DNA from: Chitinophagales bacterium
Lineage (GTDB): Bacteria > Bacteroidota > Bacteroidia > Chitinophagales > JADIYW01
DNA: 64,000 nucleotides
Assembly (NCBI GenBank): GCA_020636535.1
Contig: JACJXT010000011.1
Location: 1,202,151-1,266,150 of the forward strand
Reading direction: 5' to 3'
Positions 9,532 through 38,152 of the stretch are shown piece by piece. The notes beneath the pieces are model-generated. The model saw only the letters and a program-made list of their open reading frames with translations. It was not told where the DNA came from and searched no databases. The position numbers were made by a program, and so were the translations under genes. Numbering within the stretch: the first letter of the stretch is position 1; each line of letters begins with the position of its first letter.

Positions 9532-10023
9532 ATGAAACAACAAGAATGGAAAAGTATTTATACCATGTATGAAACTTTAGAGGAATTGCCAGTGCATTTG
9601 CAAGCATTAATTTTAGCAGCACAAAAAGCACAGTTGGCAAGCTATGCACCTTATTCTAATTTTTATGTAGGTGCGGCAATTTTGTTAGACAACGGACAAA
9701 TAATAGAAGGTAGCAATCAAGAAAATGCATCTTATCCAATTGGTTTGTGTGCAGAAAGAACAGTTTTAAGTGCAAAGGTTGCTGTAGCACCAAATCAAAA
9801 AATACAAACAATAGCTATTGTTGCTAAGTCAGATTTTATACAAGTAGAAAAGCCAGTTGCACCTTGTGGTATTTGCAGACAAACGCTTTTAGAAACAGAA
9901 TTACAACAAGAACAAGCTATTCAAATAGTATTGTACGGAAATAATGGAACTTCTTTTGTATTTAATAGCGTAAAAGAAATTTTGCCATTACATTTCGACG
10001 CATCAGAAACATTTAAACTATAA
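9532..10023 (+). CDS. cdd: cytidine deaminase
   Basis: Zinc motifs CAERTVL and PCGICRQ. Size 163 aa. Confidence 0.8.
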   Translation: MKQQEWKSIYTMYETLEELPVHLQALILAAQKAQLASYAPYSNFYVGAAILLDNGQIIEGSNQENASYPIGLCAERTVLSAKVAVAPNQKIQTIAIVAKSDFIQVEKPVAPCGICRQTLLETELQQEQAIQIVLYGNNGTSFVFNSVKEILPLHFDASETFKL

Positions 10024-14340: not shown

Positions 14341-14384
14341 ATTTTTATCATCAGTTAAAATCAATAAAATATTTATATTTGTAC

Positions 14385-18358: not shown

Positions 18359-18367
18359 ATTACAGTC

Positions 18368-18932
18368 TTCCTTCTAAAAATCTATTAAATTATTTTTTAT
18401 AGTATATTTTACTATATTTATGCCATGGTTCGTGTCTCACGAAACAAATATGAAGTAAAAATTTTCGTAATAAATTTCTAATGCTTAGGTATATTCAAGC
18501 AATTTTTCTTAGTGCATGGAGAAGAAAAAAGACAAGTACTTTCTTCTAAAAATCTATTAAATTATTTTTATAGCATATTTTACTATATTTATGCCATGGT
18601 TCGTGTCTCACGAAACAAATATGAAGTAAAAATTTTCGTAATAAATTTCTAATGCTTAGGTATATTCAAGCAATTTTCTTTATTACACGGCGAAGAAAAA
18701 CAACAAGTACTTTCTTCTAAAAATCTATTAAATTATTTTTTATAGCATATTTTACTATATTTATGCCATGGTTCGTGTCTCACGAAACAAATATGAAGTA
18801 AAATTTTTCACAATAAGTTTCTAATACTTAGGTATATTCAAGCAATTTTCTTTATTACACGGAGAAGAAAAACAACAAGTACTTTCTTCTAAAAATCTAT
18901 TAAATTATTCTTTATAGCATATTTTACTATAT
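18368..18932. repeat. tandem array, 3 full units of 171-172 bp plus a terminal partial unit
   Basis: Units start at 18368, 18540, 18711 and 18883. Each unit has three parts. B (50 nt) is a copy of the last 14 codons, stop and 6 nt of the response-regulator gene. C (79 nt) carries the hairpin ttcgtg-tct-cacgaa. A (43 nt) is a copy of 18236-18278 inside the MBL gene. The last B is the real 3' end of 18889-19530. Confidence 0.9.
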
Positions 18933-19530
18933 CCAGAGTTGTGCTAACACCTAGTTTATCAAAGATTTTGTATTTGTGAGTGTCTACTGTACTCGTAGAT
19001 AGATTAAGCGTATTGGCAATTTCTTTGTACGACATACCTTCTGCAAACAGTCGTACTATTTCTAATTCTCTATCAGTAAGTATTTTGTCTTTATATAAAT
19101 TCGGATTGATATCTTGTTCTGCTTTAATATTTTGTATTTGTGCTACAATATCACTAGAAAAATAAGATTGATGATTTAATACAGTTGCTATAGCAATCAG
19201 TAATTCATCGTTAGAAGAAGATTTGCTTACAAAACCATCGAAACCAATTTTAGTACATTGTGCAAGCGTATGATCATCAGTAGAAGAGGAGAGTCCTATA
19301 ATTTTTATACTTAGATTGTCTTTTTTAATTTGTTTAGCAATATAAATACCAGAATCACCACCTAAACGAATATCTAATAATATAATATGTATTTCATTAT
19401 TGTTTAATGCATCTTCTAAAGCCATCAAATCACTAACCATTGCTATAACTTTGTATTGGCTACCTAAAAGCAATGCTTTAATTCCTTGTGCTACAATTTT
19501 ATGGTCTTCAACAATAATTACACTATACAT
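18889..19530 (-). CDS. LuxR/NarL-family response regulator (REC + HTH)
   Basis: REC domain (IIVEDH...ILLDIRLGGDSG...), then LTDRELEIVRLFAEGMSYKEIANTLNLSTSTVDTHKYKIFDKLGV. It starts 1 nt after the kinase stop. Confidence 0.85.
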   Translation of the reverse strand: MYSVIIVEDHKIVAQGIKALLLGSQYKVIAMVSDLMALEDALNNNEIHIILLDIRLGGDSGIYIAKQIKKDNLSIKIIGLSSSTDDHTLAQCTKIGFDGFVSKSSSNDELLIAIATVLNHQSYFSSDIVAQIQNIKAEQDINPNLYKDKILTDRELEIVRLFAEGMSYKEIANTLNLSTSTVDTHKYKIFDKLGVSTTLDIVKYAIKNNLIDF

Positions 19531-19531
19531 A

Positions 19532-21544
19532 TTACATATTGAAAATAATATAAAAATCGCTACCTTGTTTTATCTCACTGTTAAAACCAACATTAGCGTT
19601 CATTTTTTCTGCTAGCTCTTTACATAAAATCAAACCTAAACCAGTACCTTTTTCGCTAGAATTACCAACAGTGCTAGTATCTGCTTCTATATTAAAAATT
19701 TTTTGTTGGTCATTTTCACTAATACCAATTCCATTGTCTTTTACACCAACTTTAATTTTTTTATCATTTAAAATTTCAGAATATAATAAAATAGTACCAT
19801 TGTTTGGTGTAAACTTTATAGCATTAGATATATAATTTCGTATAATAGTTTCAATTATATTATCATCTATATTGGCTTGTATGGTATTGTCAATAGTATT
19901 ATTGATAGTAATGTTCTTTTCTGCTGCATTGTATTGAAGTGCATCAACTGCTTTTTGACTTATAGGTAAAATTGCTTGTTCTTGAAGATTAACTTTTATA
20001 TTATTGGTTTGCGATAAAGACCATTTTAGCATATTTTGTAGTAGTTCAAATAGTTTGTTAGAGGAATCATTTATTGTAAGCAGAAATTCATTAATTTCTT
20101 CTTTAGATAAATTGAATATTTGTTTTTGTAATGCATTAGTGATATTTCTAAAAGCAGACAATGGATTTTTTAAATCGTGAGCTACTATAGAAAAGAGTTT
20201 GTCTTTTGTAGCATTAAGTGTTTTTAATTGTTGATTTTTTTCTTGTAGTATAGCATTGGTCTCTGTTTTAAATTGATTGCTTTTTCTAAGTACATTTACT
20301 AGATATAGAAGTAGTAAAGAAAGTAATGCAATAGCAATTAAAATAATCATATTGCGTTTTAACTTACTTTGTTTTAATAGGTTGTCTTTTTCTAATAAAT
20401 TAATTTGTGTTTCTTTTTTTTCTGTTTCATAGTATTCATCTAAGTAATAAATGTCAGAAGCTAATGCAGCATTGGCAATAGAGTCTTCTATGGTTTTGTA
20501 TCTTTTATAATACTCCAAACTTAATTTATAGTTTTCTTTGTCATTATTCAATAAATATAAATTGTATAGATTGTCTTTTAATCCATCATAATCTTCAAAA
20601 GCTTCTAATGCATTCTTACATTTTAATAAATATTGTTCAGCAGTAGAAAACTCTTTTTTAACTCTATAAATATTGCCTTTAATATCGTAGCAATAAGCTA
20701 AAGCAAAATCATCATTAATAGATCTAAAATAATTAATAGCCGAGTCAATATATTGATTCGCTAAATTTATTTGATTGGTTTCTGCTAAAAAGTTAGCATA
20801 ACTAATATAAGTGTTATTTAATTTATAAGTAAAATCACTTTTTTTGTCTAAGGTCATACTTTTATCAAAGTATTTTTTTGCATTTGAATAATCTTTGCTT
20901 TCTAAATAATTTATAGACAAATTATTTAATAGACTACTTTTTATAGAAGGAATACTAGCAACAGCTAAACCTTTTTTAATATATTTATTAGAAGTTTCGT
21001 ATTGTTTTAAATTAGCATAGTTAATACTTAAACTATTATAAAAATAAGGCAGCACTTCTGCATTTATACTGTCTTTATGTTGTTCGTAATATTTTATAGC
21101 ATCTAATAAGTATTTGCTAGATAACTTATAGGCACTTAAATCAGAATAGGTTAAACCAAGATCACCTAAAATACTGGTAATTTTTAAATGGTCATTAATT
21201 GCATAAGCAATATCAAGTGCTCTATTAAAATATACTAAAGCAGAATCTTGTTTCTCTAACGATACAAAAGCGAGACCTTTAGTTCTAAGTGCTACACAAT
21301 TTTGAAATGAATTTTGCTTTAATTTATTGATTTTAAAAATATTATTTATAATAATAATAGAAGAATCAGGATTATATTTCCAATACAGCTCTGCTAACTT
21401 TAATTGTGCATCAATTTTCTTATCTGTTGATTTACTTTGCCGAATAACTTTATTCAAGCTATCAATTGTAGTATTAGCATTTAATTGTGAACTAAATAAA
21501 CAAAAAAGTAAAAACCATATGTAGTTTAACTTCAAAGATTTCAA
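19532..21544 (-). CDS. sensor histidine kinase with extracytoplasmic TPR-like repeat domain
   Basis: Signal peptide, ~370 aa of TPR-like repeats, one TM (MIILIAIALLSLLLLYLV), the H-box FSIVAHDLKNPL, and N and G boxes (GTGLGLILCKELAEKM). Apparent TTG start. Confidence 0.85.
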   Translation of the reverse strand: MKSLKLNYIWFLLFCLFSSQLNANTTIDSLNKVIRQSKSTDKKIDAQLKLAELYWKYNPDSSIIIINNIFKINKLKQNSFQNCVALRTKGLAFVSLEKQDSALVYFNRALDIAYAINDHLKITSILGDLGLTYSDLSAYKLSSKYLLDAIKYYEQHKDSINAEVLPYFYNSLSINYANLKQYETSNKYIKKGLAVASIPSIKSSLLNNLSINYLESKDYSNAKKYFDKSMTLDKKSDFTYKLNNTYISYANFLAETNQINLANQYIDSAINYFRSINDDFALAYCYDIKGNIYRVKKEFSTAEQYLLKCKNALEAFEDYDGLKDNLYNLYLLNNDKENYKLSLEYYKRYKTIEDSIANAALASDIYYLDEYYETEKKETQINLLEKDNLLKQSKLKRNMIILIAIALLSLLLLYLVNVLRKSNQFKTETNAILQEKNQQLKTLNATKDKLFSIVAHDLKNPLSAFRNITNALQKQIFNLSKEEINEFLLTINDSSNKLFELLQNMLKWSLSQTNNIKVNLQEQAILPISQKAVDALQYNAAEKNITINNTIDNTIQANIDDNIIETIIRNYISNAIKFTPNNGTILLYSEILNDKKIKVGVKDNGIGISENDQQKIFNIEADTSTVGNSSEKGTGLGLILCKELAEKMNANVGFNSEIKQGSDFYIIFNM

Positions 21545-21599: not shown

Positions 21600-21646
21600 T
21601 AGTGAAAAATCACTATGGTACAAAAAGAAGCATCATTATACCTTTA
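21600..21646 (+). promoter_or_regulatory. island cis element P1: palindrome TAGTGAAAAATCACTA + fixed-distance CTTTA
   Basis: Perfect 6-4-6 inverted repeat at 21600-21615. CTTTA at 21642-21646, 28 nt after the T of TATGG. 22 nt lie between CTTTA and the ATG at 21669. The site sits in the divergent region shared with the kinase gene. Confidence 0.6.
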
Positions 21647-21668
21647 CATTAACAAAAACAAAAACATT

Positions 21669-22130
21669 ATGAAAACAATCACATTCATTTTAGTTAGCTT
21701 ACTAGGTTTTGCTAGCTACGCACAAGACAACTTTGCTTTTTATCAAGCACAACACAACAACAGTTCGTATCAAAATCAAATGGTAACCATTTATGATATA
21801 GCTGATGCGTCGTTATTAAAATCTACTATTGATTTTAGTAATAAAGAACAATCGTACAAAAATTTTATCGCAAAGAATTACAACGAAACAAGTATTCAGT
21901 TTTATGTAAATACTTTAGACCAAAATGTAGGTATTGATATTAAAGGCAATCAACTAAACCATTACATTACTAAAATTATGGATGCTAATGGAGCTGTACT
22001 ATCTCAATTACCAGCAACTGATAATTTAAATGCAAAGCTATGTACTAAAAATTGGGACAAAGGTACTTATCTCATTCAAATTGTAGATACTAACTATGAG
22101 GTACTAGCAACAGCAATGGTAGAAAAATAA
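21669..22130 (+). CDS. small secreted protein with probable T9SS C-terminal sorting domain
   Basis: Signal peptide MKTITFILVSLLGFASYAQ (I use the ATG at 21669, not 21615). The C-terminus ...KGTYLIQIVDTNYEVLATAMVEK resembles the type A CTD of 24586-25062. Confidence 0.6.
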   Translation: MKTITFILVSLLGFASYAQDNFAFYQAQHNNSSYQNQMVTIYDIADASLLKSTIDFSNKEQSYKNFIAKNYNETSIQFYVNTLDQNVGIDIKGNQLNHYITKIMDANGAVLSQLPATDNLNAKLCTKNWDKGTYLIQIVDTNYEVLATAMVEK

Positions 22131-22159
22131 CAAGAGTTCTTTATGTATCAACCTTTTTT

Positions 22160-22189
22160 GAGAGGTATTATATAATGCCTCTCTTTTTT
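22160..22189 (+). terminator. rho-independent terminator after 21669-22130
   Basis: gagaggtattatataatgcctctc near-perfect palindrome followed by a tttttt run. Confidence 0.6.
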
Positions 22190-22284
22190 AAATTATATTA
22201 TTTCTATAGATAAATTTTCATAGTTTTTGGTGAGTAGTCTTATTAATGTTCTAAAATATTTTTAGGACTGCTTTTTATAAAAAT

Positions 22285-22331
22285 TAGCGAAAAAATACTA
22301 TGGAATATTTATTTAAAAACAATCAACTTTA
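22285..22331 (+). promoter_or_regulatory. island cis element P2
   Basis: TAGCGAAAAAATACTA (degenerate, 5-nt spacer) at 22285-22300. CTTTA at 22327-22331, the same 28-nt offset from TATGG. 33 nt to the ATG at 22365. Confidence 0.5.
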
Positions 22332-22364
22332 AATTATTAATCAATAAATAAAAACAAAAAAATC

Positions 22365-22808
22365 ATGAAAAATATAATTAAAATTACGCTACTACTTTTT
22401 GCATGTACTTTACTACTAAATGCTTGTAAAAAAGAAAACATCATTTTTAAAAATGAGTTTATGCACACTTGGTATCTTCAAAAATATGAAGAAAATGGAG
22501 TAGACAAAACACAAGAGTTTGACTCAGTTTACCATAACTATACGCTAACATTTGATAATGTAAAAAACTATGCTACAGATGAATATGATGATATTTTTAT
22601 AGAATCTTTTTATCATCACGGAACATTGTTCGTAGAATATTATGGCTTTTTTCAGTTCTTACGACCAGACAAACTAAAGCTACAATATAGTGGTAGTACA
22701 TATAATACAAAAGCATTTACAATAGAATTTGTAAACAAAGGTAGCGACGAATTTATCATCAATGAGGTGAGTGGTATTACTACCAAACGCTATTCCTTTA
22801 GAAAATAA
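22365..22808 (+). CDS. hypothetical lipoprotein
   Basis: Signal peptide with lipobox LLNAC. 147 aa, beta-rich. No motif recognised. Confidence 0.5.
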   Translation: MKNIIKITLLLFACTLLLNACKKENIIFKNEFMHTWYLQKYEENGVDKTQEFDSVYHNYTLTFDNVKNYATDEYDDIFIESFYHHGTLFVEYYGFFQFLRPDKLKLQYSGSTYNTKAFTIEFVNKGSDEFIINEVSGITTKRYSFRK

Positions 22809-22872
22809 ATATTCAAATATAAGATAATATAAAATATTTTTTACCGACATAAAGAAGCGTAAAAAGTAAAAT

Positions 22873-22919
22873 TAGCGAAAAATTACTATGGTAAAGTCGT
22901 ATAGCATTTATAAGCTTTA
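22873..22919 (+). promoter_or_regulatory. island cis element P3
   Basis: TAGCGAAAAATTACTA at 22873-22888. CTTTA at 22915-22919 (same offset). 27 nt to the ATG at 22947. Confidence 0.5.
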
Positions 22920-22946
22920 TACTATTATAAATTTAAACAAAAAATT

Positions 22947-24575
22947 ATGAAAACAATTTTAAAAACAAGTTTCTTTTTAGTGGTATTATTAATTACTACA
23001 ACTATTGTAGCACAAACACCACAATCATTCTCTTATCAAACTGTAATAAGAGATAACACAGGTAATCCATTAGCTAATCAAAGTATAAGCTTAAAAATAA
23101 GTATACTAAAAGGAGAATCAAATGGAACTACTGTTTATTCAGAAACACATAATAAAACAACTAATGCTTTTGGGTTAGTCAATTTAAATATTGGAGATGG
23201 TAGTGTTGTAAGTGGCAACTTTGCTAACATTAATTGGGGAAACGACATCTATTTTGTTAAAACAGAATTAGATGCTACTGGTGGAAACAATTTTACAGTA
23301 ATGGGCGTGCAACAGTTATTATCAGTTCCTTATGCATTACATGCCAAAACTGTAGCAATAGATAATGTAAACGATGCAGATGCCAATCCAACAAATGAAT
23401 TACAAGATTTATCTTTCAATAATTCAACTGGAGTATTAAGTATTAGCAACGGAAATTCTGTTACATTACCAACAACTTCTGGTGGTGATAATTGGGGAAC
23501 ACAAACCGTACAACACAATACAACACTAAGTGGAAACGGAACAACAGCAAGTCCATTACAAGTGGTAGGCGATTTAACCGACGACCAAACACTTTCATTG
23601 AGTGGGAATAACTTATCTATTAGCGGAGGAAATTCAGTTAATTTAAATAGTATAGATAATCAAATACTTACATTAAGTGGCGATAATTTAACTATAAGTA
23701 ATGGTAATACTGCAAATTTAAGTAGTATCGATAATCAAACGCTTTCGTATAATAGCGTATCTGGTCAGTTGAGTATTGTTAATGGAAATAGTGTTACCAT
23801 TCCATCTTCTGCGGATAATTGGGGTAGTCAAACAGTACAACACAATACAACACTAAGTGGAAATGGAACAACAGCAAGTCCATTACAAGTGGTAGGCGAT
23901 TTAACTGATGATCAAACACTTGCACTAAGTGGAAATACCTTAAGTATAAGTGACGGAAATAATGTAGATATGTCTGGTATATCATCTTTTATTTATAGAC
24001 AAATAAATTTAGATCCAAGTTATCCTGAGTTAGATGATGTCAATCAAATTGTATACTTAAATGGTACTACAAGTACAGTAGCACTGCCTTCAGATCCAAC
24101 AATAGGTAGAATTGTATATTTAACTTCCTCTGCTTCTGCAACTAAAATTTCATCGAACGGTAAAGCTTTACGAAAAGATGGAACTACTTATTTAGGAGAT
24201 ACTATTATTACTATGCAAAATTTAGCTAATGGAACTGGAATAATTGGTTTAATATATACAGGCAATCAATGGATGCTATTTTCTAATGAATCAAATGCTG
24301 GATTGAAAACTAAAGTTCAAGGTAAAGTAGATGCAACTGGTTTTGCAGGAGCATTCTATGTTTCTAAACCTGTTGTTGGTACTAAGGTCAGTACTGGCAC
24401 TTATAGATTAAGTATAGATTCAGAAAATATGAATATATATAACTGCATGGTAACTACAAAAACAGAAGGAACAATTGCATCCGTTTCTAATAGTGCAGAC
24501 TATATAACTATTTATATATATGATATATTTACAAATTTGAAAGTAGATTCTGAATTTAATTTTATCCTATATTAA
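22947..24575 (+). CDS. secreted repeat protein (fibre/adhesin-like), function unknown
   Basis: Signal peptide. Multiple short D(N/D)QxLSLSGNxLSISxGNSVxL-type repeats. A ~109-aa internal duplication. No T9SS CTD seen. Confidence 0.55.
   Translation: MKTILKTSFFLVVLLITTTIVAQTPQSFSYQTVIRDNTGNPLANQSISLKISILKGESNGTTVYSETHNKTTNAFGLVNLNIGDGSVVSGNFANINWGNDIYFVKTELDATGGNNFTVMGVQQLLSVPYALHAKTVAIDNVNDADANPTNELQDLSFNNSTGVLSISNGNSVTLPTTSGGDNWGTQTVQHNTTLSGNGTTASPLQVVGDLTDDQTLSLSGNNLSISGGNSVNLNSIDNQILTLSGDNLTISNGNTANLSSIDNQTLSYNSVSGQLSIVNGNSVTIPSSADNWGSQTVQHNTTLSGNGTTASPLQVVGDLTDDQTLALSGNTLSISDGNNVDMSGISSFIYRQINLDPSYPELDDVNQIVYLNGTTSTVALPSDPTIGRIVYLTSSASATKISSNGKALRKDGTTYLGDTIITMQNLANGTGIIGLIYTGNQWMLFSNESNAGLKTKVQGKVDATGFAGAFYVSKPVVGTKVSTGTYRLSIDSENMNIYNCMVTTKTEGTIASVSNSADYITIYIYDIFTNLKVDSEFNFILY
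23487..23977 (+). repeat. internal direct duplication inside 22947-24575
   Basis: About 165 nt starting at 23487 (gataattggggaacacaaaccgtacaacacaat...) recur at 23814, an offset of 327 nt, with few substitutions. Confidence 0.8.
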
Positions 24576-24585
24576 ACTAAAAAAC

Positions 24586-25062
24586 ATGAAAAATATACTA
24601 TTTATAATCATATTTTTATTTACTATTAAAGCTTACACACAAGAAGTAATTGCTACAACTGGAAATCATTATAGCAATACCAATTATAGCATGAGTTTTA
24701 CTATTGGCGAACCTATTATTACTACTTATACTACTAGTAATATTATAATGACACAAGGTTTTCATCAAACAAAATTGACAGATATTGCTAGTTTTATTAA
24801 AAACTTTTATAGTGATGCGACTATTAGTGTGTTTCCAAATCCAGCAGTAAACAGTGTACAAATTAATTTGAAGAGTGATAAACTAATTCAATACAAAACC
24901 AATGTATATGATATTAGTGGAAAATTAATTTACCAAACAGCATTATTAAATGCCACTCAACAACAAATAGAAGTTAGTCATTGGTCTGTTGGTACTTATA
25001 TTATACAAGTAGTCGATGATAAAAACCAAGCACTAGCAACTGCAAAAATTATTAAACAATAA
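24586..25062 (+). CDS. small T9SS C-terminal-target-domain protein
   Basis: Signal peptide. The GEPIITT...MTQGFHQ motif is common in small Bacteroidota secreted proteins. Clear type A CTD: VFPNPAVNSVQINL...GTYIIQVVDDKNQALATAKIIKQ. Confidence 0.75.
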   Translation: MKNILFIIIFLFTIKAYTQEVIATTGNHYSNTNYSMSFTIGEPIITTYTTSNIIMTQGFHQTKLTDIASFIKNFYSDATISVFPNPAVNSVQINLKSDKLIQYKTNVYDISGKLIYQTALLNATQQQIEVSHWSVGTYIIQVVDDKNQALATAKIIKQ

Positions 25063-25066
25063 AATT

Positions 25067-26104
25067 ATGAAAAATATATTTTTATTAGTTATGATTTTGT
25101 TGAGTACTCAATTTGTAATTCAAGCAGAAGAAAATCAAGTGTGCGAAAAACAAATGGCAACACTTTATAACGAACTGTCTGATATTGATGGCATAAGCAA
25201 TATTTATGAAGAAAATAAAAGTGATTACGACTATTACGAGTTGCGAGATCAATACATTACTATTATAGATAATTGTAATTATGGCGACATATGTAAAAAC
25301 GATAAACTTTTTGCCAGACACTTATTTTGGTCGCAACTCTATTTAGCTAATTTGGCATTAGAAGCAGAACGATTTGGTGAAGCTGAACAATTTATTACCA
25401 ATACTTTAGATAATTATAGACTAATTAATAATGATATAGCATTAACTGAAGATGAAAAAAAAGAAATTTTTACTATACAAAATAATGCCATTGATTTACT
25501 TAAAATGTATAATACAAATGCAGATGTAAATTATATGATTAATACAATGTATATCAATGCAAAAAACTATACAGATAATAGCATTTTTACAGATGTTGGT
25601 TTGTCATGTGTCAATATGAAATTACCAACAAGCGTTCCTTTTTCTAAATTAATGAATATAAAATCAGTATTTAGTAATGATGATATGCTTTTATTAGATG
25701 ATTATGCAATGTATATTATTAAAAATAAAATTTATGAATATACTTCTGTCGATTTATCTTATAAAGAAGTACTAGTATATACTTTGGTTTATAGTGCTTT
25801 TAATAAAATACAAAACAATTCATTAGATAGTGTTGCTCAATATATTCAACCATTAAACGAAATTTGTGTTGGTTTACCTTATATGTTTCCAGCAATCACT
25901 TCTGTTTACTTATTTCAAATCGAATATTATTTACAACAAAAAGATTATTTAAAAGCATATTCATTTTTAAGTCAAATTATATTGTATTTTAATTATTTCG
26001 ATGCAGAAAAATACGAGTTAGATTTAATTAAAAACTACATTTTTAGCAATTACAATCTCTGTGTAGAAAAGCTCAACAGAAAGGATTTAATCACTAATAA
26101 ATAA
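25067..26104 (+). CDS. secreted hypothetical protein (paralog of 26111-27178)
   Basis: Signal peptide ending with AEEN. The C-terminus ...QQKDYLKAYSF...NYNLCVEKLNRKDLITNK aligns with the next gene. Confidence 0.5.
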   Translation: MKNIFLLVMILLSTQFVIQAEENQVCEKQMATLYNELSDIDGISNIYEENKSDYDYYELRDQYITIIDNCNYGDICKNDKLFARHLFWSQLYLANLALEAERFGEAEQFITNTLDNYRLINNDIALTEDEKKEIFTIQNNAIDLLKMYNTNADVNYMINTMYINAKNYTDNSIFTDVGLSCVNMKLPTSVPFSKLMNIKSVFSNDDMLLLDDYAMYIIKNKIYEYTSVDLSYKEVLVYTLVYSAFNKIQNNSLDSVAQYIQPLNEICVGLPYMFPAITSVYLFQIEYYLQQKDYLKAYSFLSQIILYFNYFDAEKYELDLIKNYIFSNYNLCVEKLNRKDLITNK

Positions 26105-26110
26105 AATATT

Positions 26111-27178
26111 ATGAAATACTTATGCTTACTATTTAGCTTGATTTGTATAAATACTTATGCAGAAGAAAATTCGTATAACGATTGCTTTGCAAAGATAGGT
26201 CTACTTCATGAAGAAGTGTTGTATAATTTAGCACACAACGATCCAGATTTTCCAGAATACTACAAAGGTGTTTATGCAAACCAAAATTATTTAAACTACG
26301 ATTCACTATTAATACTTTACAATAAAACATATAAAACTTGCATATTTGTAGATGAAGTAAATTCAATTGCTGAATACAAAGATTATATGTTTCAACTACA
26401 AATAGATTTAGGAAATCTATCTATCATTAACAAAAACTATAAAAATGCATTATTAATTTTAGATAGAAATTTTGTTTTACTAGACCATTTAAATCAAGAT
26501 GACCTATTTAATGAAGAAGCATTATTCGATTTTTTTGAATATTATATTAATTGTTTAACAGCAAAAGATACTAGTACTTATGTTGACCAATATGAAGTGC
26601 AAATACTTGAAAAACTAATACAGTATGTAGATAAAATTCAAATAGATAATAAAATAAAACTCAAAGCAGAAGTTTTAAATTTAATTTGTAGATATATATC
26701 ACAAATAAAAACATTTAACCTTAATAAACTACATGATGTTAATAGTAATTATTCAAATTTTGAACTTACTTTTTTTAATAACTATGCACAATTTATTATA
26801 GATAATAATTTAATTGCTTACGATTACGACAATTATGACTACTACACAGCAATAGCTTTTCCATTCATTATAAATGCACAAAAAGCACTACAAAATAAAG
26901 ATATAAAAACAGCAGAAAACTACATACACTATTTTGATAAATTGAGTATTGCAGGAAAATATTTAAGAATACCAATTAATTATATATATATTACTTATGC
27001 TGATTATTATATTCAACAACAAGATTATTTAAGTGCTTTTATTTATATAGGTACATTTGTAAAATATGCATATCTATTTAAAAATGCTGGAGATATTGCT
27101 ACTTATAATTATCTAATAGACAATTATAATTTCTGTGCAGAAAAGCTCAACAGAAAAGATTTACTACTACAAAAATAG
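26111..27178 (+). CDS. secreted hypothetical protein (paralog of 25067-26104)
   Basis: Signal peptide ending with AEEN. The C-terminus ...QQQDYLSAFIY...NYNFCAEKLNRKDLLLQK. Confidence 0.5.
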   Translation: MKYLCLLFSLICINTYAEENSYNDCFAKIGLLHEEVLYNLAHNDPDFPEYYKGVYANQNYLNYDSLLILYNKTYKTCIFVDEVNSIAEYKDYMFQLQIDLGNLSIINKNYKNALLILDRNFVLLDHLNQDDLFNEEALFDFFEYYINCLTAKDTSTYVDQYEVQILEKLIQYVDKIQIDNKIKLKAEVLNLICRYISQIKTFNLNKLHDVNSNYSNFELTFFNNYAQFIIDNNLIAYDYDNYDYYTAIAFPFIINAQKALQNKDIKTAENYIHYFDKLSIAGKYLRIPINYIYITYADYYIQQQDYLSAFIYIGTFVKYAYLFKNAGDIATYNYLIDNYNFCAEKLNRKDLLLQK

Positions 27179-27222
27179 CGAAAAATCACTATGGTATATC
27201 CAATCAAAAACATTCAACTTTA
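27176..27222 (+). promoter_or_regulatory. island cis element P4
   Basis: TAGCGAAAAATCACTA at 27176-27191 (one mismatch from a perfect palindrome). It overlaps the stop codon of 26111-27178. CTTTA at 27218-27222. 30 nt to the ATG at 27253. Confidence 0.55.
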
Positions 27223-27252
27223 AACTATTACAAAACAATTAAAACAAAAATT

Positions 27253-27903
27253 ATGAAAACAATTATTAAAATCGCAATGTGTTTATCTTTCTTTCTTGTA
27301 CTAAGCTGTACTAAAGATAACGAAGTAACACCAGAAGAAAACCAACCAATTCAACCAACAGAAACAACAACTTATACTATAAAACCATTTCAAAGTTTAT
27401 GGACAGATAAACAAGAAATACAACAAGTTGCCAATATGCATGTTGCAGGTAGTTACGAAGCTGGTAATCTGTTGTACTTTACTACATCAGGTAAAATTAC
27501 TCAATTAGGTGTTTTTGCTGGTGAAGCAGGTAAATTTAGAGTTACTCTTTGGGATGTAACTACGCAATCTGTTATTCGTTCTATACTTATAGATGCACCA
27601 ACTGCTAACAATACTTATTATGCTAATATAGATGCAGTTGATGTTATAGCAAATAAACAGTATATTTTATCAACTAATAATAAAAACTTTGAAGATAATA
27701 CTACAACTACACAACCTTACATTTATAAATTAGAAAACGGAGAACGAGTTTATGATCCAATCTATCCAATTACTTATGATAAAGTTACTTATATAAATGC
27801 AGTAGAAAAAGTTGGAGATGCTTTAAGTTATCCAACACCAAGTTCATTAGTTAATAATAAATTTATGGGTGTACCAGATTTAGTTTTTGTATATGAAGAA
27901 TAA
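27253..27903 (+). CDS. hypothetical lipoprotein
   Basis: Lipobox LVLSC. 216 aa. No motif I can name with confidence. Confidence 0.5.
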   Translation: MKTIIKIAMCLSFFLVLSCTKDNEVTPEENQPIQPTETTTYTIKPFQSLWTDKQEIQQVANMHVAGSYEAGNLLYFTTSGKITQLGVFAGEAGKFRVTLWDVTTQSVIRSILIDAPTANNTYYANIDAVDVIANKQYILSTNNKNFEDNTTTTQPYIYKLENGERVYDPIYPITYDKVTYINAVEKVGDALSYPTPSSLVNNKFMGVPDLVFVYEE

Positions 27904-27921
27904 CTAAGTAAACATTTTCCT

Positions 27922-27949
27922 CGCAGAGTCTCTCTTAGAGGACTCTGCG
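27922..27949. repeat. GTCTCTC-loop hairpin element
   Basis: cgcagagtc-tctcttagag-gactctgcg, a 9-bp stem right after the stop of 27253-27903. No T-run follows. Homologous to 40402-40427. Confidence 0.6.
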
Positions 27950-27978
27950 AAATCTGAAACAACTAAAAACAAAAAATC

Positions 27979-28470
27979 ATGAAAACAATTAAAATACTAA
28001 GTTTGCTTTTTTCTACGATACTATTTGTACATCAAAGTTTTGCAGGAAACAAACTCAATGAAGACATCTTTCTAGGAACATTAAATCGTAATGAATTTAA
28101 TAGCACTATTAATTTTATGATACTAGCCGATAGTAAATTAAATTTTGTAGTAGGAGATACTTTAGATTTATATCGCTTAAATATAACTTATAATGATAAA
28201 TCAAGTCAAGAAGAAGTGGAAACCTGTTGGCAAAATAATATAGCTAATAAAAATCAAAGTAAAATAGCAAGAGTACGAATCACAGGTTTCAATCAAAATA
28301 TAATTTTTATTACATTAATAAGAGATTATTTTTTAAATCTTAAGCCAACAAGCCATTATTTTAATTATCAAATACTATTTGAAAAACCTATTTTTTTCAA
28401 TGCACAACAAGCAAAAGAAGTAAATCAAATGTATAATAATTTAAAAAAACCATTATTAAAAAAACCATAG
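27979..28470 (+). CDS. secreted hypothetical protein
   Basis: Signal peptide (...HQSFAG). 163 aa. Confidence 0.45.
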   Translation: MKTIKILSLLFSTILFVHQSFAGNKLNEDIFLGTLNRNEFNSTINFMILADSKLNFVVGDTLDLYRLNITYNDKSSQEEVETCWQNNIANKNQSKIARVRITGFNQNIIFITLIRDYFLNLKPTSHYFNYQILFEKPIFFNAQQAKEVNQMYNNLKKPLLKKP

Positions 28471-28474
28471 AACT

Positions 28475-29110
28475 ATGAAAAATACAATTTTAATCTTAGT
28501 AATTATTGCAACTATAGTAAGTTGCACAAAAGAAAACAATACAACAAACACTACACCATTACCAACACCACGCGATTTAAAAATTCGTTCTAACGATGTA
28601 TTAGATACAGTCCGACAAATCTTTTACATTGATGTCCCAAACCAAATAGCAGAAACACAAGGTCTAATAGATGAATATGGTAGTTCTATGTTTTCTATGA
28701 CAGCTATTTTTATAACAGCTCTACAACGCTATCAAACCAATAAAAGTATAGGCATTAAAGATGTAATAGCTTGTTGTCATACTACGCTACTCATTAATTC
28801 ATCAAGTGCAGACAGCTACAATGGCTACGATTTAACTTCTGGCGGAAAAAGTACACTCAGCACACAAATTTCAAGCTATCCAAAAACACCATATATTTAT
28901 ATGAAAGGTGCAACACCAAGCAATAACTATACACCAACACTACCAATTACTATCGAAATGTATGCCGATCCAATAAATACAACAACTACATATGCTAAAA
29001 TATTTATTTACACACAAGGAGCAGACTCACCACGACCATTACATTTAAAGAAAGAAAATGGCATTTGGAAAGTATCTAACTTTAGTAGCTTATTAACAGG
29101 TTATAGATAA
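28475..29110 (+). CDS. hypothetical lipoprotein
   Basis: Lipobox IVSC. 211 aa. Confidence 0.5.
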   Translation: MKNTILILVIIATIVSCTKENNTTNTTPLPTPRDLKIRSNDVLDTVRQIFYIDVPNQIAETQGLIDEYGSSMFSMTAIFITALQRYQTNKSIGIKDVIACCHTTLLINSSSADSYNGYDLTSGGKSTLSTQISSYPKTPYIYMKGATPSNNYTPTLPITIEMYADPINTTTTYAKIFIYTQGADSPRPLHLKKENGIWKVSNFSSLLTGYR

Positions 29111-29123
29111 ATACATCATAGAT

Positions 29124-29161
29124 AATATTGTCAAAGTTTTAAACTTTGACAATATTTTTAT
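29124..29161 (+). terminator. strong rho-independent terminator after 28475-29110
   Basis: aatattgtcaaagttt / aaactttgacaatatt arms of up to 16 bp, followed by ttttta. Confidence 0.7.
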
Positions 29162-29172
29162 ATGCTCTGTAC

Positions 29173-29234
29173 ATCAATGTTCTACAAAGTGGATATTGAT
29201 GTTTCCCAACTAGAATAACACAAAAACTGCGTAG
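29173..29234 (+). repeat. about 62-bp direct repeat, copy 1
   Basis: atcaatgttctacaaagtggatattgatgtttcccaactagaataacacaaaaactgcgtag. It contains a stem acatcaat/attgatgt. It recurs at 29497-29560 with a few changes. Confidence 0.8.
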
Positions 29235-29428
29235 GTGTATGATTTTTCCTATAATTAAATAGTTTGTCTTTTAATGAATAATATTAAAAAATAATTATTG
29301 GCTAAAGAAGCGTAGGAAGAAAAAATGCGGCAGCTGAGCGTAGGCAATAAGCGTGGAGCGATCATTTTTTCTTGACTTTTTTGTTACTTTTTGTGTCAAG
29401 ACAAAAAGTAAAATTAAAATCTATGCCT

Positions 29429-29449
29429 TGTTTCGTGTCTCACGAAACA
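29429..29449 (+). repeat. copy of the cgtgtctcacg hairpin element
   Basis: tgtttcgtg-tct-cacgaaaca, a 9-bp stem. The flanks (ctatgcc...aata) match the copies in the 18.4-18.8 kb array. Confidence 0.75.
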
Positions 29450-29496
29450 ATACTTTTGTGTCATGTCAAGTGTTTTCCACTTGACAACTTACTTAA

Positions 29497-29560
29497 ATCA
29501 ATATCTCACAAAGTGGATATTGATGTTAGCCAATACTAGAATAACACAAAAACTGCGTAG
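29497..29560 (+). repeat. about 62-bp direct repeat, copy 2
   Basis: atcaatatctcacaaagtggatattgatgttagccaatactagaataacacaaaaactgcgtag. Confidence 0.8.
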
Positions 29561-29850
29561 CAGTTTATAATTAATATTGAGTAATAGCATTGTAAACAAA
29601 GTCTAATATCTAATAATCTTGATTCTAGAAATCTTACAACAAAAAGTCTTATTACTCACTACTATTTACCTAAATACTACAAAAAAAACTGACCGTTTAA
29701 TGATATCGGTCGGTGTCCTCACCGAAAGAAATATTATTTAACTATAGCCAAATCTATATAAAATATCATTCCTTCAAAAGAAGGAATCTATAAATTTATT
29801 CAATATTGGTTTTTTTATGTTATGACAAATTATTGAGATGCTACACCATA

Positions 29851-29867
29851 TTTCGTGTCTCACGAAA
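29851..29867 (+). repeat. copy of the cgtgtctcacg hairpin element
   Basis: tttcgtg-tct-cacgaaa with conserved flanks (ctacaccata ... caaatat). Confidence 0.75.
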
Positions 29868-30044
29868 CAAATATTATAGTACTCTTGTATTAAATAAAAT
29901 CTTAATATATTTATTTATTCGTTCTAAAATTGACCGTTCACTCAATATTTCGTCCGTTCACTCATTATTTTTGACTTTCTATATATAATCGTCTAAGTTG
30001 CAAAAGATATAAACGATTTATTATAATGAATCATTTTTAAATAA

Positions 30045-30091
30045 TAGTGAATTTTCACTATGGTATAAAACGCTTCACTTATTGAACTTTA
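30045..30091 (+). promoter_or_regulatory. island cis element P5 (in front of the giant gene)
   Basis: Perfect inverted repeat TAGTGA-ATTT-TCACTA at 30045-30060. CTTTA at 30087-30091 (same 28-nt offset). 22 nt to the ATG at 30114. Confidence 0.6.
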
Positions 30092-30113: not shown

Positions 30114-33100
30114 ATGAAAAACATTTTTACACTACTTTTTTTAATGGTAATGGCATATGTATTACCAAAAAATGCAAATGCACAAGCATTCATTACTACT
30201 TGGAAAACAGATAATGCAGGTTCGTCTTCTAGTACATCTATAACCATTCCAACTCTTGCTGGCGAAACATACAACTACGATGTAGACTGGAACAACGATG
30301 GTATTTTCGATGAATTTGGCTTAACAGGCGATGTTACACACGACTTTGGAGTTGCTGGTACTTACACCATTCGCATACAAGGTACTTTTCCACGCATCTA
30401 TTTCAATAACACAGGAGATAGACAAAAAATACTAAGTATAGACCAATGGGGTAATATTGCTTGGACAAGCATGCATAGTGCTTTCCATGGTTGTACCAAC
30501 CTAAATCTAACAGCCATTGATGCACCAGATTTGTCCAATGTAACTTCATTAGGTTATATGTTTAATAGTTGTACTAACTTTAATGCAAACATCAATCATT
30601 GGGATGTTAGTAACATAACAGATATGATAGCTATGTTTGATAGTGCTTATGTGTTCAATCAGCCATTAAATGATTGGAATGTAAGTAATGTTACCAATAT
30701 GGCCGAAATGTTTTATTGGGCAGTATCGTTCAATCAGCCATTAAATAATTGGGATGTAAGTAATGTTACACAAATGGCAAAAATGTTTTATAATGCAAAT
30801 AAATTTGATCAATCATTAAATAATTGGGATGTTAGTAGTGTAACGAATATGTCATATATGTTCTGTAATGCAAATAAATTTAATCAACCATTAAATAATT
30901 GGAATGTCAGTAATATAAAATATATGGCATATATGTTCGCATCTGCTTCAACTTTTAATCAACCGCTAAATAATTGGGATGTTTCTAATGTAGGCGTTAT
31001 GGAAGGGATGTTTTATTATGCTATATCATTTAATCAACCATTAAATAATTGGGATGTGTCTAATGTAATACGAATGAATAGTATGTTTTCACATGCAACA
31101 TCCTTTAATCAACCTTTATTTTTATGGAATGTAAGTAAAGTACAATATATAGACTATATGTTTTACTATGCATCTTCTTTTAACCAAAATTTAGGTAATT
31201 GGAATATTAAGAATACTATTTACAGTACTAATAAATTAAAATATATGCTATCTTACTCTGGTTTAGATTGTATCAATTATTCGGCAACTTTAATAGGTTG
31301 GAGTAACAATACTTCAACTCCAAATGGGCTACAACTTTCTGCTCAAAATCTACAATATGGTACAAATGCGCTTACTGCTAGGAATAAATTACTGGCAAAA
31401 GGTTGGACAATTATTGGAGACAGCCCAAGTGGCACAGGTTGTTCTTTACCATTCATTACTACATGGAAAACAGATAATACAGGTGTATCATCTAGTACTT
31501 CTATTACAATTCCAACCACAGGTACTGGCTACTACTATGATGTAGATTGGAACAATGATGGCATTTTTGACAATTTTGGTGTTACTGGTAGTATTACACA
31601 CAATTATGGAGTAGCAGGTAGTTATCAAGTAGCTATTAGAGGAGATTTTCCTAGAATTTACTTTAACAATACAGGTGATAAGCAAAAAATACTAAGTATA
31701 GACCAATGGGGAGATATTCAATGGTCTTCTATGGAAAATGCTTTTTATGGTTGTAGAAATTTAAACTTTTCTTTAATACCAGCACCATATCTTGGTAATG
31801 TAACCTCATTAAAAAGTATGTTTTTTGCTTGTTTTAATCTTAATGCTAATCTTAATCATTGGAATACTAGTACTATTACAGATATGTCTAACTTATTTAA
31901 TTTAGCCAATTCATTTAACCAACCATTAAACAATTGGAATGTCAGTAATGTAACCAATATGTCAAAAATGTTCGCGAGTATACCTTTGTTTAATCAACCA
32001 CTAAATGATTGGGATGTAAGTAGCGTAACAGATATGTCTAGTATGTTTAATACAGTACAAGCATTCAACCAACCATTAAATAATTGGGATGTTAGTAATG
32101 TAACAAATATGAGATATATGTTTTTTAATGAAACTTCCTTTAACCAACCATTAGATAATTGGACAGTAAGTAGTGTAACAGATATGTATGGTATGTTTAA
32201 TTCTGCATCATCATTCAACCAAAGCTTGGCTACTTGGTCATTAAATCCAATAGTAAATATGTCTATAATGCTTAATTATTCTGGCTTAGATGTTAGTAAC
32301 TATGATGCTACGCTAATCGGTTGGGAAGCTCAAGGTATTTCAAACAGAACATTAGGTGCTACAAACTTAAATTATTGTAATGCAGCATTACAAAGAAGTA
32401 ATTTAATTACTACTTATGGATGGACAATCACTGGAGATACTAAAATTTGTGGAGCATCTTTCATTACTACTTGGAAAACAGACAATGCAGGTTCGTCTTC
32501 TAGTACTTCAATAACTATTCCAACTTTTGTTGGCGAATCGTACAACTATGATGTAGACTGGAATAACGATGGTATTTTTGACGATTTTGGAGTTACTGGA
32601 GATATTACACACGACTATGGAGTGGCAGGTACTTATCAAGTAGCTATTAGAGGAGGCTTTCCAAGAATTTATTTTAATGCTACTGGCGATAGACTAAAAA
32701 TATTAAGTGTAGACCAATGGGGAGATATTACTTGGTCTTCTATGGAAAGTGCTTTCAATAGTTGTAGCAATTTAAACATTACAGCTATAGATGCACCAGA
32801 CTTAAGTGGAGCCACTTCGCTTAGAAGAATGTTTGCTGGTTGTTCTAGTCTAAATGCCAATATCAATCATTGGAATACTACTACTATTACAGATATGTCT
32901 TATCTATTTAATGGAGCCAATACATTTAATCAGCCATTAAATAATTGGAATGTTAGTAATGTAACTAATATGTATGCTATATTTTCTGGTGCAACCGCTT
33001 TTAATGGCAACATCACTTCTTGGGATGTAAGTAAAGTACAATTATTTACTTTAGCGTTTAATGCAGCTACAAACTTTAATCAAGATATTGCTGCTTGGAA

Positions 33101-36100
33101 TACCGTAGCAGCAAATTCTTTTCAAAATATGTTTAGAAATGCAATAAATTTTAATCAAAATTTAGCCAATTGGACATTAAAACCAACAGTAAATATGTTA
33201 CTAATGCTCGATAATGCTGGCTTAGATGTCAATAACTACGATGCTACACTTATTGGTTGGGAAGCTCAAGGCATTACTGGTAGAAATTTGGGTGCTTTAA
33301 ACTTAAAATATTGTGCTGCAGCACTACAAAGAAATAATTTAATTACTACTTATGGTTGGACAATTACTGGAGATAGTAGAGATTGTGGTGATCCTTTTAT
33401 TACTACTTGGAAAACAGACAATACAGGTATTTCTTCTAGTACTTCTATTACAATTCCAACTACAGGTACTGGCTACTACTACGATGTAGATTGGAACAAC
33501 GATGGTATTTTCGATGAATTTGGTATTACTGGCGATGTTACGCACGATTTTGGTGTTGCTGGTACTTATACTATTCGCATACAAGGTGCTTTTCCTAGAA
33601 TCTATTTCAACAATAGTGCTAGTTCAGATAAAGCAAAACTACTAGAAGTCAATCAATGGGGAGATGTTGTTTGGACAAGTATGAACGGTGCTTTCGCTGG
33701 CTGTACCAACTTAAGGGTTTTTGCTACAGATGCACCAGACTTATCTAGCGTTACAGATATGACTTCAATGTTTGCAAGATGTAGCTATATGAATGATAAT
33801 ATCAATCATTGGGATGTAAGCAATGTTACCAATATGACTTATTTATTCCTTTTTGCTTCACGATTTAACCAGCCATTAAATGATTGGAATGTAAGTAATG
33901 TAAATAATATGACAGGTGTTTTTCAATATGCATCAAAATTTAATCAAGACATAAGCGATTGGGAGGTAGATAATGTTATACGCTTTAGTTCTATGTTTAG
34001 GTATGCACCAGTGTTTAATCAACCACTAAATACATGGAATGTAAGTAATGGAATCTACTTTACAAATATGTTTAATGGAGCATATGCTTTTAATCAACCA
34101 TTAAGTACATGGAATATAAGCAATACAACAAGTTTAAAAGAAATGTTTTACTATGCTACTAGCTTTAATCAAAATCTAAGTAATTGGAATATAGCAGGAG
34201 TTACAGATATGACAAATATGTTATCTTATTCAGCTTTAGATGTTGCTAATTACGATGTTACACTTATTGGTTGGGAAGCACAAACAGTTCAAAATAATGT
34301 TCCTTTAGGTGCTATTAATTTAAGATATTGTGCAGCAGAGATACAAAGAAGCAATTTAATCACTACAAATACATGGACAATTACTGGAGATGCTAGAGCT
34401 TGTGGTAATCCATTTGTCACTACATGGAAAACAGACAATGCAGGTACTTCATCTAGTACTTCTATTACAATTCCAACTACAGGAACAGGTTACTACTATG
34501 ATGTAGATTGGAACAATGACGGTATTTTTGATGAATTTGGCTTAACTGGTGATGTAACTCATAATTTTGGTACAGCAGGTACTTACCAAATTGCTATCAG
34601 AGGTGATTTTCCTAGAATATATTTTAATAATGCTGGCGATAAAGATAAAATACTAAGTATAGACCAATGGGGAGACATTGAATGGACTTCAATGGAAAAT
34701 GCTTTCCATGGTTGTACTAATTTAATATCTTCAGCTATAGATGCACCAGATTTAAGCATCTGTACCATTTTAGATGGAATGTTTGCTCGTTGTACTAATT
34801 TTAATGCTAGCATTAATCATTGGAATGTAATTACTATTACTGATATGTCGGCTATGTTTTATCTAGCATATGCTTTTAATCAACCATTAGATAATTGGAA
34901 TGTAAGTAATGTAACAGATATGCATAGAATGTTTAGTGCCGCAATAGCATTTAATCAACCATTAAATAATTGGGATGTAAGTAATGTAATAGATATGTCA
35001 TATATGTTTTACAATACAGATGTTTTTAATCAATCACTAAACAATTGGAATACAAGTAGCGTAATCAATATGTCATATATGTTTTCTTATTCTAATGTTT
35101 TTGATCAGCCACTAAATAATTGGAATACTAGTAGTGTAATAGATATGTCAGAGATGTTTCATAATGCAGATGCTTTTAATCAACTATTAAATAATTGGAA
35201 TGTTAGTAGTGTTACTAATATGTCAGCTATGTTTTTTTCGGCAAACGCCTTTAATCAACCATTAAATACTTGGAATGTAAGTAGCGTAACTAATATGTCA
35301 GAGATGTTTATATACGCATCATCATTTAATCAACCATTAAATACTTGGAATGTAAGTAGCGTAACTAATATGTCATATATGTTTAATCATGCAACAGTAT
35401 TCAATCAATCATTAGCTAACTGGAATATTACAGCTGTAACAGATATGACAGATATGTTGTCTTTCTCTGGTTTAGATGTGGATAATTACGATAATACACT
35501 AATTGCTTGGGAAGCTCAAACAGTACAAAACAATGTGCCTCTCGGTGCTACATATCTTAAATATTGTGCAGCAGATGTGCAAAGAAGCAACTTAATAAGC
35601 ACTTATGGCTGGACAATTACTGGAGATAATAAAATTTGCGGTGAGCCATTCATCACTACATGGAAAACAGATAATGCAGGTGTTTCTTCTAGTACTTCTA
35701 TTACCATACCTACAACAGGCACTGGTTACAATTACGATGTAGATTGGAACAACGATGGTATTTTTGATGAATTTAATATTACTGGCAATGTTACACACGA
35801 CTTTGGCGTTGCTGGTACTTATACCATTCGCATACAAGGTGCTTTTCCTAGAATATATTTTCATGCTACTGGCGATAAAGACAAAATATTAAGCGTAAAT
35901 AAATGGGGCGATATTCAATGGTCTTCTATGGAATATGCTTTTGGGGATTGTAGCAATTTAAATGTTATCGCAACAGATGCTCCAGATTTATCTAATGTAA
36001 CTTCTCTTCATTCTATGTTTTCAAATTGCACTAATTTCGATGCTAATATTAATCATTGGGATGTTAGTAATGTAACCAATATGTCATATATGTTTTCAAG

Positions 36101-38147: not shown

Positions 38148-38152
38148 TAACA

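Follow-up and report, generated by a model that had tools for sequence, protein, structure and literature searches.

In this work a 64-kb stretch of the genome of an uncultured Chitinophagales bacterium (contig JACJXT010000011.1; hereafter the window, with a G+C content of about 29% and representing about 3% of the genome) was analyzed for a 47-bp element which occurs five times, as P1 through P5, each copy being located directly upstream of the first gene of one of five transcription units. About 14 genes lie downstream of the five sites, within an island of 18.7 kb. Each element appears to be a complete regulated promoter, which would be composed of an inverted repeat of the form (A)TAGYGA-AAAA-TYACTA(T), an adjoining T(G)G and, 20 nt further on, a box of the form nAnCTTTA. 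Judging from sequence and from its conservation in related loci, the response regulator encoded beside P1, acting as a phosphorylated dimer, probably activates these weak sigma-A promoters and thereby an island of adhesin genes linked to type IX secretion (T9SS).

Five copies of a bipartite element

The pattern TAGYGA-N4-WYACTATGG-N23-CTTTA has five matches without any mismatch in the window when both strands are searched, all of them on the plus strand, where about 0.06 would be expected by chance; none of the 100 dinucleotide-preserving shuffles from which this expectation was derived reached five. No sixth match to the full pattern is present in the window on either strand with up to three mismatches allowed. 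The original prediction, made from the letters of the window, had described five sites sharing one architecture and occurring nowhere else in the 64 kb, and both the positions and the exclusivity proved to be exact. When the 16-mer palindrome is considered alone, at two mismatches, 28 occurrences are found with 27.9 expected; this lack of enrichment means that the signal comes from the bipartite layout as a whole. TGG(T/A)A follows the repeat directly and CTTTA begins 28 nt past the T of TATGG at five sites out of five, as had been predicted, and the N20 spacers of the five sites are unrelated in sequence. The distance from the end of CTTTA to the ATG is 22, 33, 27, 30, and 22 nt for P1 to P5, in agreement with the range of 22 to 33 nt proposed initially, and the gene opened by this ATG encodes a product with a signal peptide or a lipobox in every case. 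The first genes of the five units are not homologous to each other. With first genes that are not paralogous and spacers that are not conserved, the similarity of the five elements points to constraint on the boxes and is not explained by recent duplication alone.

The quality of the inverted repeat varies between sites (Table 1). It had been described as perfect at P1 and P5 with one or two mismatches at the remaining three, which is correct for all but P2, where three pairs are mismatched. In P1, P4, and P5 the flanking bases extend the symmetry (A-TAGYGA...TCACTA-T), so that the repeat could arguably be counted as 18 bp. P1 separates the kinase gene from unit 1, which is transcribed divergently from it, and the first three bases of P4 (TAG) are also the stop codon of the preceding gene at 26111-27178. 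Two further readings of the sites were discarded. A GA dinucleotide upstream of the repeat, seemingly conserved in a MAFFT alignment, was dismissed as its distance from the repeat varies from 15 to 19 nt, and interpretations as phase variation, invertible promoters, or integron cassettes were rejected, given that there are five direct copies, no inverted partners, and no recombinase nearby.

Conservation of the module beside orthologous kinase and regulator genes

The element was compared with six loci carrying orthologues of the kinase gene next to P1, one with a kinase 78% identical to that of the window (L023) and five more distant ones with 45-47% identity (L016, L019, L024, L025, and L026). 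The regulator is 88% identical over the part available in L023 and 57-61% identical in four of the distant loci, the L026 contig containing only the first 29 regulator codons; the recognition helix is almost unchanged among the orthologous regulators. A small signal-peptide gene is located divergently upstream of the kinase gene in all six loci. In L023 the counterpart of P1 has retained the 25-nt operator and -33 block unchanged, from the repeat through TGGTACAA, together with an unchanged -7 block, and the spacer between the two has diverged. At the same position the five distant relatives carry TCAGGAAAAATCCCTA-T-TG-N20-CAACTTTG with minor variants, that is a module TCAGGA-N4-TCCCTA-TTG-N20-CAACTTTG with spacing identical to that of the window, and in all five the segment that begins with CTAT and ends with the box measures 34 nt. 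Over the complete set of 13 sites, six from the window lineage and seven from the distant relatives, CTAT(T/G)(G/T)-N20-nAnnTTT(G/A) has the same length in 13 out of 13. The symmetry-related positions 4 and 13 of the repeat vary jointly, with T and A at sites of the window lineage as against G and C at those of most relatives, a matched change such as would be expected of a symmetric dimer changing its specificity.

Scanning the loci of the relatives with a matrix identified two sites which had not been used in the definition of the motif: one at 13242(-) of L016, 30 nt upstream of a 151-aa gene just past the regulator gene, and one at 6089(-) of L024, upstream of a 153-aa gene which is the counterpart of the former. 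With a matrix built from the five window sites only, these two extra sites and the kinase-side sites were the two best matches in L016 and in L024; the kinase-side site was also the best match in L025 and, weakly so, in L026, while the matrix failed in L019. Conversely, a matrix built from five distant sites ranked P4, P5, and P2 as the top three of about 128,000 window positions, with P4 first.

The target proteins in the distant relatives are secreted, cysteine-containing, mutually paralogous proteins of 143-153 aa whose genes bracket the two-component genes, each with its own copy of the module. The remaining genes of the neighborhoods differ between loci. Apart from the small target genes, only the kinase and regulator genes are conserved in all of them, and nothing but kinase, regulator, and promoter module travels together. 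This is the main argument for the adjacent regulator, and not a distant factor, being the one that reads the repeat, and the same layout and spacing at five orthologous loci of other lineages bear out the link to the adjacent two-component system that had been proposed for the window. It should be noted that the kinase-side sites of the distant relatives have an extra, less regular right half-site (TCACTAC) 24 bp upstream, which is absent from the window sites.

Table 1. Position of the promoter elements, genes, and terminators in the window and of the small target genes in related loci.
Feature	Position	Strand	Description
P1	21600..21646	+	Perfect 16-bp inverted repeat TAGTGAAAAATCACTA (21600-21615)
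P1 core boxes	21616-21618; 21639-21646	+	TGG standing at -33 and -7-like box TACCTTTA, respectively; transcription predicted to start at ~21651
P2	22285..22331	+	Degenerate repeat TAGCGAAAAAATACTA with mismatches in 3 pairs, followed by TGG and the -7-like box CAACTTTA; transcription predicted to start at ~22336
P3	22873..22919	+	Repeat TAGCGAAAAATTACTA with mismatches in 2 pairs, followed by TGG and the -7-like box AAGCTTTA; transcription predicted to start at ~22924
P4	27176..27222	+	Repeat TAGCGAAAAATCACTA with a mismatch in 1 pair, followed by TGG and the -7-like box CAACTTTA; transcription predicted to start at ~27227
P5	30045..30091	+	Perfect repeat TAGTGAATTTTCACTA; TGG; -7-like box GAACTTTA; predicted start ~30096
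Response regulator	18889..19530	-	213 aa; receiver and GerE/LuxR helix-turn-helix, NarL/FixJ family
Sensor histidine kinase	19532..21544	-	N-terminal hydrophobic segment, ~375-aa tetratricopeptide repeat (TPR) region, transmembrane helix at about residue 400, HisKA, HATPase_c
Unit 1	21669..22130	+	153-aa secreted protein with a tail like a T9SS C-terminal domain (CTD)
Unit 2	22365..22808	+	147-aa lipoprotein
Unit 3	22947..27178	+	Four genes: 542-aa fibre-like protein, 158-aa T9SS cargo protein, paralogous secreted pair of 345 and 355 aa
Unit 4	27253..29110	+	Three genes: 216-aa lipoprotein, 163-aa secreted protein, 211-aa DUF6935 lipoprotein
Unit 5	30114..40371	+	2677-aa DUF285-repeat protein with T9SS sorting domain, then three small genes
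Intrinsic terminator	22160-22183		After unit 1
Intrinsic terminator	29124-29156		After unit 4
Primary sigma factor (sigma-A) gene	1599-2474		
Small target genes, L016	9265-9705; 12710-13165		
Small target genes, L024	2093-2533; 5549-6010		
Small target genes, L019, L025, L026			One each

A probable weak sigma-A-type core promoter

The consensus promoter of the Bacteroidota has TAnnTTTG at -7 and TTTG at -33 (PMC7366714, PMC2483708), and in Flavobacterium psychrophilum the -7 box spans -12 to -5 (PMC9723704). CTTTA is the 3' part of a box nAnCTTTA, which appears to be a G-to-A variant of this -7 box. The five boxes of the window match four or five of the six consensus positions; all of them are without the final G and four are without the first T. 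In the orthologous promoters the -7 position reads CAACTTTG, CAATTTTG, or CATCTTTG, and in six of the seven sites of the relatives it is preceded at exactly 20 nt by a TTG, whose place as the putative -33 element is occupied by TGG in the window lineage. Both putative core elements have changed together throughout this lineage, from TTG to TGG and from TTTG to TTTA. Boxes of the TAnnTTTG type (TA(T/A)nTTTG) are found 5-35 nt before the start codons of housekeeping genes in the window, and TATCTTTA boxes also serve two ordinary window genes. The initial description of the element as something other than the sigma-A consensus of the Bacteroidota is thus not supported, since CTTTA differs by one base from nAnnTTTG at the orthologous position and TGG stands where the relatives have TTG. 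On this comparison the elements appear to be weak sigma-A-type promoters for which no alternative sigma factor is needed. A general scan of the window for sigma-70-type promoters was uninformative, with 88 found and 88.6 expected.

If the -7 box is placed at -12 to -5, the repeat is predicted to extend from about -51 to -36 with its center at about -43.5, and T(G/T)G to occupy -35 to -33. Transcription is predicted to start about 5 nt past CTTTA, giving A-rich leaders of 18-29 nt. The dimer-type palindrome does stand some 35 nt upstream of the second box, as had been suggested. A TAAATTTA box on the minus strand near P1 might serve in autoregulation of the kinase operon, but it stands 4 nt farther from the repeat than the boxes of P1 to P5 and is not conserved in L023.

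The adjacent two-component system and the proposed mechanism

The pair of genes next to P1 encodes a kinase and a NarL/LuxR-type response regulator with a receiver and a GerE domain (Pfam Response_reg, 6e-21, and GerE, 3e-16), as had been predicted. The positions DD...D53...S/T81...K103 of the regulator are conserved in an alignment with its orthologues, VraR, and RcsB, and its closest homologues of solved structure are VraR, RcsB, EvgA, DesR, and NarL. The kinase sequence recurs with 100% identity in an NCBI protein from a Chitinophagales metagenome-assembled genome; its translation probably begins with the ATG at 21518 and not with the TTG at 21544. The best NCBIfam match of the kinase is FimS of Porphyromonas, with 187 bits, far under the equivalog cut-off of 600 bits. 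Directly downstream of the regulator gene and overlapping its 3' end, at 18367-18932, a 172-bp unit is repeated in tandem (3.3 copies, 95% identity); each copy carries the last codons of the regulator in antisense (KNNLIDF-stop) and a hairpin, GGTTCGTGTCTCACGAAAC, which recurs at 29430 and 29850.

In the mechanism that we propose the TPR kinase would sense a periplasmic, possibly proteinaceous, signal and phosphorylate the regulator, whose dimer would then bind the 16-bp repeat, abutting the -33 element as at lux-box and other class II sites. The bound dimer would recruit sigma-A RNA polymerase to core promoters which are too weak on their own, and the apparent weakness of the window boxes would fit a dependence on an activator. 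The output would be the co-ordinated expression of T9SS-secreted proteins and lipoproteins of the cell surface, including the 2677-aa adhesin-like protein of unit 5. Regulator binding, activation over repression, the transcription starts, and the sensed signal are all points that we infer in building this model.

Several observations weigh against this model. The exclusivity of the motif refers to the 64-kb window and to about 58 kb of the relatives' loci. Scanning species-representative genomes (596 Gb) for the exact pattern gave three matches and scanning the JGI metagenomes gave 11, in both cases a chance-like outcome, the matches in the two collections being GC-richer, non-palindromic, and partly intragenic; thus only two organisms are known to have the form of the motif found in the window lineage, and the family-level form is documented at seven loci. 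The scores of P4, P5, and P2 with the matrix of the distant sites (14.2, 9.5, and 8.7 bits) stay within what shuffled sequence yields at best (mean 11, maximum 18.7); it is their ranks alone that are informative. The base-reading K180 of RcsB aligns with a serine in the window regulator. A clear TTG at -33 was not seen in the housekeeping promoters of the window, and the T(T/G)G may belong to the operator and not to the core promoter. In addition, a site overlapping the -33 region is a classic repressor position too, and the near-consensus core promoter of the distant relatives weakens the argument for activation there.

Alternative explanations

These last two points lead to the alternative in which the same regulator reads the same operator as a repressor: bound at about -51 to -36 it would block access of the polymerase to -33, and the island would be switched on upon its release. 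Repression is known from regulators of the NarL family besides activation, the operator adjoins -33 or overlaps it, and the core promoter of the distant relatives (TTG-N20-CAACTTTG) could be constitutive. We nevertheless consider repression rather unlikely. Activation would be favored by the spacing between operator and box, which is exact to the base in all 13 sites and across six lineages, as fits contact with the polymerase and is not needed for occlusion; by the weakened -7 boxes of the window lineage, all without the conserved G and four of five without the T of TA; and by the precedent of FimR, the closest characterized functional analogue, which is an activator (PMC1974823).

As the window shows only 3% of the genome, the operator might be read by a transcription factor encoded elsewhere, with the adjacent two-component system a bystander. 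This we regard as very unlikely, for each of the six other loci has the motif next to the orthologous kinase and regulator genes, on one side or on both, despite entirely different surroundings, and a 16-bp repeat of 6-4-6 layout fits a GerE-type dimer (PMC7913699).

A sigma factor of the extracytoplasmic function (ECF) type, or another alternative sigma factor encoded elsewhere, could recognize the two boxes as its -35 and -10 elements, in which case the palindrome would be incidental or the site of a second factor. Such motifs do drive T9SS genes in F. psychrophilum and Porphyromonas gingivalis (PMC9723704), and the shared TGG and TTTA of the six window-lineage sites amount to a co-ordinated departure from sigma-A at both boxes. 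The orthologous promoters, however, are sigma-A-like, with TTG and nAnnTTTG in precisely the places of the two boxes, which makes an alternative sigma factor improbable, and TATCTTTA is used by two other genes of the window. No site has a CGT-type -10 or a GGAAC-type -35 box as for ECF factors, nor the GC 10 nt past the GG that the sigma-54 signature (TGGCAC-N5-TTGC) calls for, and no ECF gene was found among the annotated window open reading frames submitted to family searches. The palindrome, moreover, is the best-conserved part of the module and co-varies symmetrically. Taken together, these features make an alternative sigma factor highly doubtful.

A role of the repeat as an RNA hairpin, be it an attenuator, a terminator, or a processing site, can be practically dismissed, as can the view that the copies are functionless remnants of duplication. 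P1 and P5 do fold well as RNA (-9.0 and -6.7 kcal/mol), and P4 comes straight after a stop codon. For P2 and P3, however, no stable structure is obtained (0 kcal/mol), and the substitutions do not compensate each other (C4 faces an invariant A13). The repeat is located upstream of where transcription is predicted to start, no T-run comes after it, and no Rfam family matches anywhere in the window. Against a relic of duplication stand the unrelated spacers, the non-paralogous downstream genes, and an architecture kept at 45% kinase identity.

Comparison with known regulatory systems

Activation by the adjacent regulator would place the element among known types of promoter. Class II activator sites are centered near -41.5. 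In the lux-box and tra-box promoters of LuxR and TraR a GerE-type dimer has its site near -42.5, either in place of a weak promoter's upstream element or adjoining it, and the center predicted here, at about -43.5 relative to a start that is itself predicted from the box position, is similar. In contrast to the regulator studied here, LuxR and TraR bind a ligand and are not phosphorylated response regulators, and they work with sigma-70 promoters of the -35/-10 type. Among phosphorylatable regulators, NarL uses 7-2-7 and ComA 6-4-6 operator sites. The RcsB box deduced from crystal structures reads TN(G/A)GA-N4-TC(T/C)NA (PMC7913699), and the window repeat has the same xxGA-N4-TCxx geometry over its inner 14 bp. 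In common with operators of the RcsB and NarL/FixJ type it is a pseudo-palindrome with half-sites of 5-6 bp, a 4-bp gap, and a GA...TC core, the ligand, as proposed for the window, being a GerE homodimer of a phosphorylatable regulator (PMC7913699). The half-sites differ, being TAGTGA in the window lineage and TAGGGA or TCAGGA in the relatives; the operator occupies one fixed promoter-proximal position, whereas RcsB boxes are found at many distances; and the host belongs to the Bacteroidota, with -33/-7 promoters. As far as can be judged from the alignments, the likeness to RcsB is limited to the geometry of the site, and the read-out of bases would have to differ in detail.

The putative core promoter resembles that of sigma-A in the Bacteroidota in its nAnCTTT(A/G) and T(G/T)G at -7 and -33, its 20-nt spacer, and its predicted A-rich leader of 18-29 nt (PMC7366714, PMC9723704, PMC2483708), and departs from it in the -7 box ending in A and usually missing its first T, and in the -33 element reading TGG. 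In P. gingivalis the kinase FimS has a large periplasmic TPR sensor and its partner FimR directly activates promoters of surface appendages (PMC11053733, PMC1974823). The window system shares with FimS/FimR the architecture of the kinase (periplasmic TPR region, one transmembrane helix, HisKA, and HATPase domains) and a presumed control of surface structures; unlike FimS/FimR its predicted targets are T9SS cargo proteins and lipoproteins and not type V pili, and at 187 bits, with 600 required, its kinase is not an orthologue of FimS.

In the PorXY-SigP/PorA system of P. gingivalis a small CTD cargo protein is the ligand of the kinase (PMC12152298). There, as here, a two-component system is linked to T9SS cargo, and in the window a 153-aa protein with a CTD-like tail is encoded at the conserved position beside the kinase gene, with the motif in front of its gene. 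PorX, unlike the window regulator, is not of the GerE type, and its cascade acts via an ECF sigma factor; the small proteins adjoining the kinase in the distant relatives are unrelated to the unit 1 protein and have no recognizable domain and no detectable CTD. A more far-reaching interpretation is that of a self-contained surface-remodelling circuit re-used in evolution, with the unit 1 protein as a PorA-like ligand of the TPR sensor closing a positive feedback loop. Most relatives would then hold a unit of three or four genes (small secreted protein, TPR kinase, regulator, and second small secreted protein), and the window lineage would have placed the cassette before five non-homologous units, thereby wiring an 18.7-kb island to one sensor. 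We consider this scenario speculative and improbable as a whole; the feedback role of the kinase-adjacent protein is possible and unsupported.

The element would thus work like an operator-promoter of class II of the NarL/LuxR family, a mechanism which is not of a new kind. Mildly unusual are the spread of the module to five non-homologous units here, as opposed to one or two targets in the relatives, and the joint change of both core elements across the lineage. To our knowledge hardly any operator of a NarL-type response regulator has been described in the Bacteroidota. Detailed studies of activator-dependent promoters are likewise few for this phylum, in which promoters of the -33/-7 kind are unlike those of textbooks. 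Our literature search retrieved no publication describing the motif. The island offers a testable example, with a defined operator, an exact spacing between operator and box, a candidate regulator, and T9SS-secreted surface proteins as targets. For annotation, the family-level pattern T-N4-GA-N4-TC-N-CTAT-N-G-N20-nAnCTTTR next to a pair of genes for a TPR kinase and a GerE regulator can serve as a rule predicting the controlled genes in uncultured Chitinophagales and related genomes.

Genes of the island and further observations

The unit 1 protein is a paralogue (E=5e-14) of the clear CTD protein encoded at 24586-25062. The unit 2 lipoprotein has no homologue besides itself among 5.8 billion clustered proteins. 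In the 542-aa protein of unit 3 (22947-24575) the N-terminal 90 aa resemble, below the cut-off, the N-domain of the mosaic adhesive trimer fibres of Bdellovibrio (NF053851, E=8e-10), and the middle part is composed of NxxLSISGGNSV-type repeats. The terminator scan found none separating units 2, 3, and 4, and P3 and P4 may therefore act as internal promoters.

The island is closed at its right edge by a transposase gene of the IS1634 family at 41464-43074 (350 bits). To the left, transposase genes of the IS200/IS605 family are present at 21-497 and 13791-14267, within regions 1-575 and 13771-14345; the two copies contain a 300-nt direct repeat of 98% identity and share a downstream hairpin, ACTATGGACTTTTAGTCCATAG. 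The presence of IS1634 on the right and of an IS200 copy on the left hints at the island region being an insertion hotspot. The 930-bp non-coding gap before P5 (29110-30045) is full of paired repeats, such as those at 29170 and 29494 (40 nt, 83% identical) and at 29209 and 29535 (26 nt, identical), and carries two copies of a hairpin, GTTTCGTGTCTCACGAAAC; these repeats look like small mobile elements or repetitive extragenic palindromic (REP)-like elements.

In five genes of the window, at 7960-9324(-), 9532-10023(+), 41464-43074(+), 51841-52395(+), and 58988-59905(-), a -7 box begins 12-13 nt before the start codon, the box being TATCTTTA at 9532-10023(+) and TAnnTTTG at the other four. With the box in this position transcription may start on or next to the ATG, and several mRNAs of this organism may thus be leaderless.

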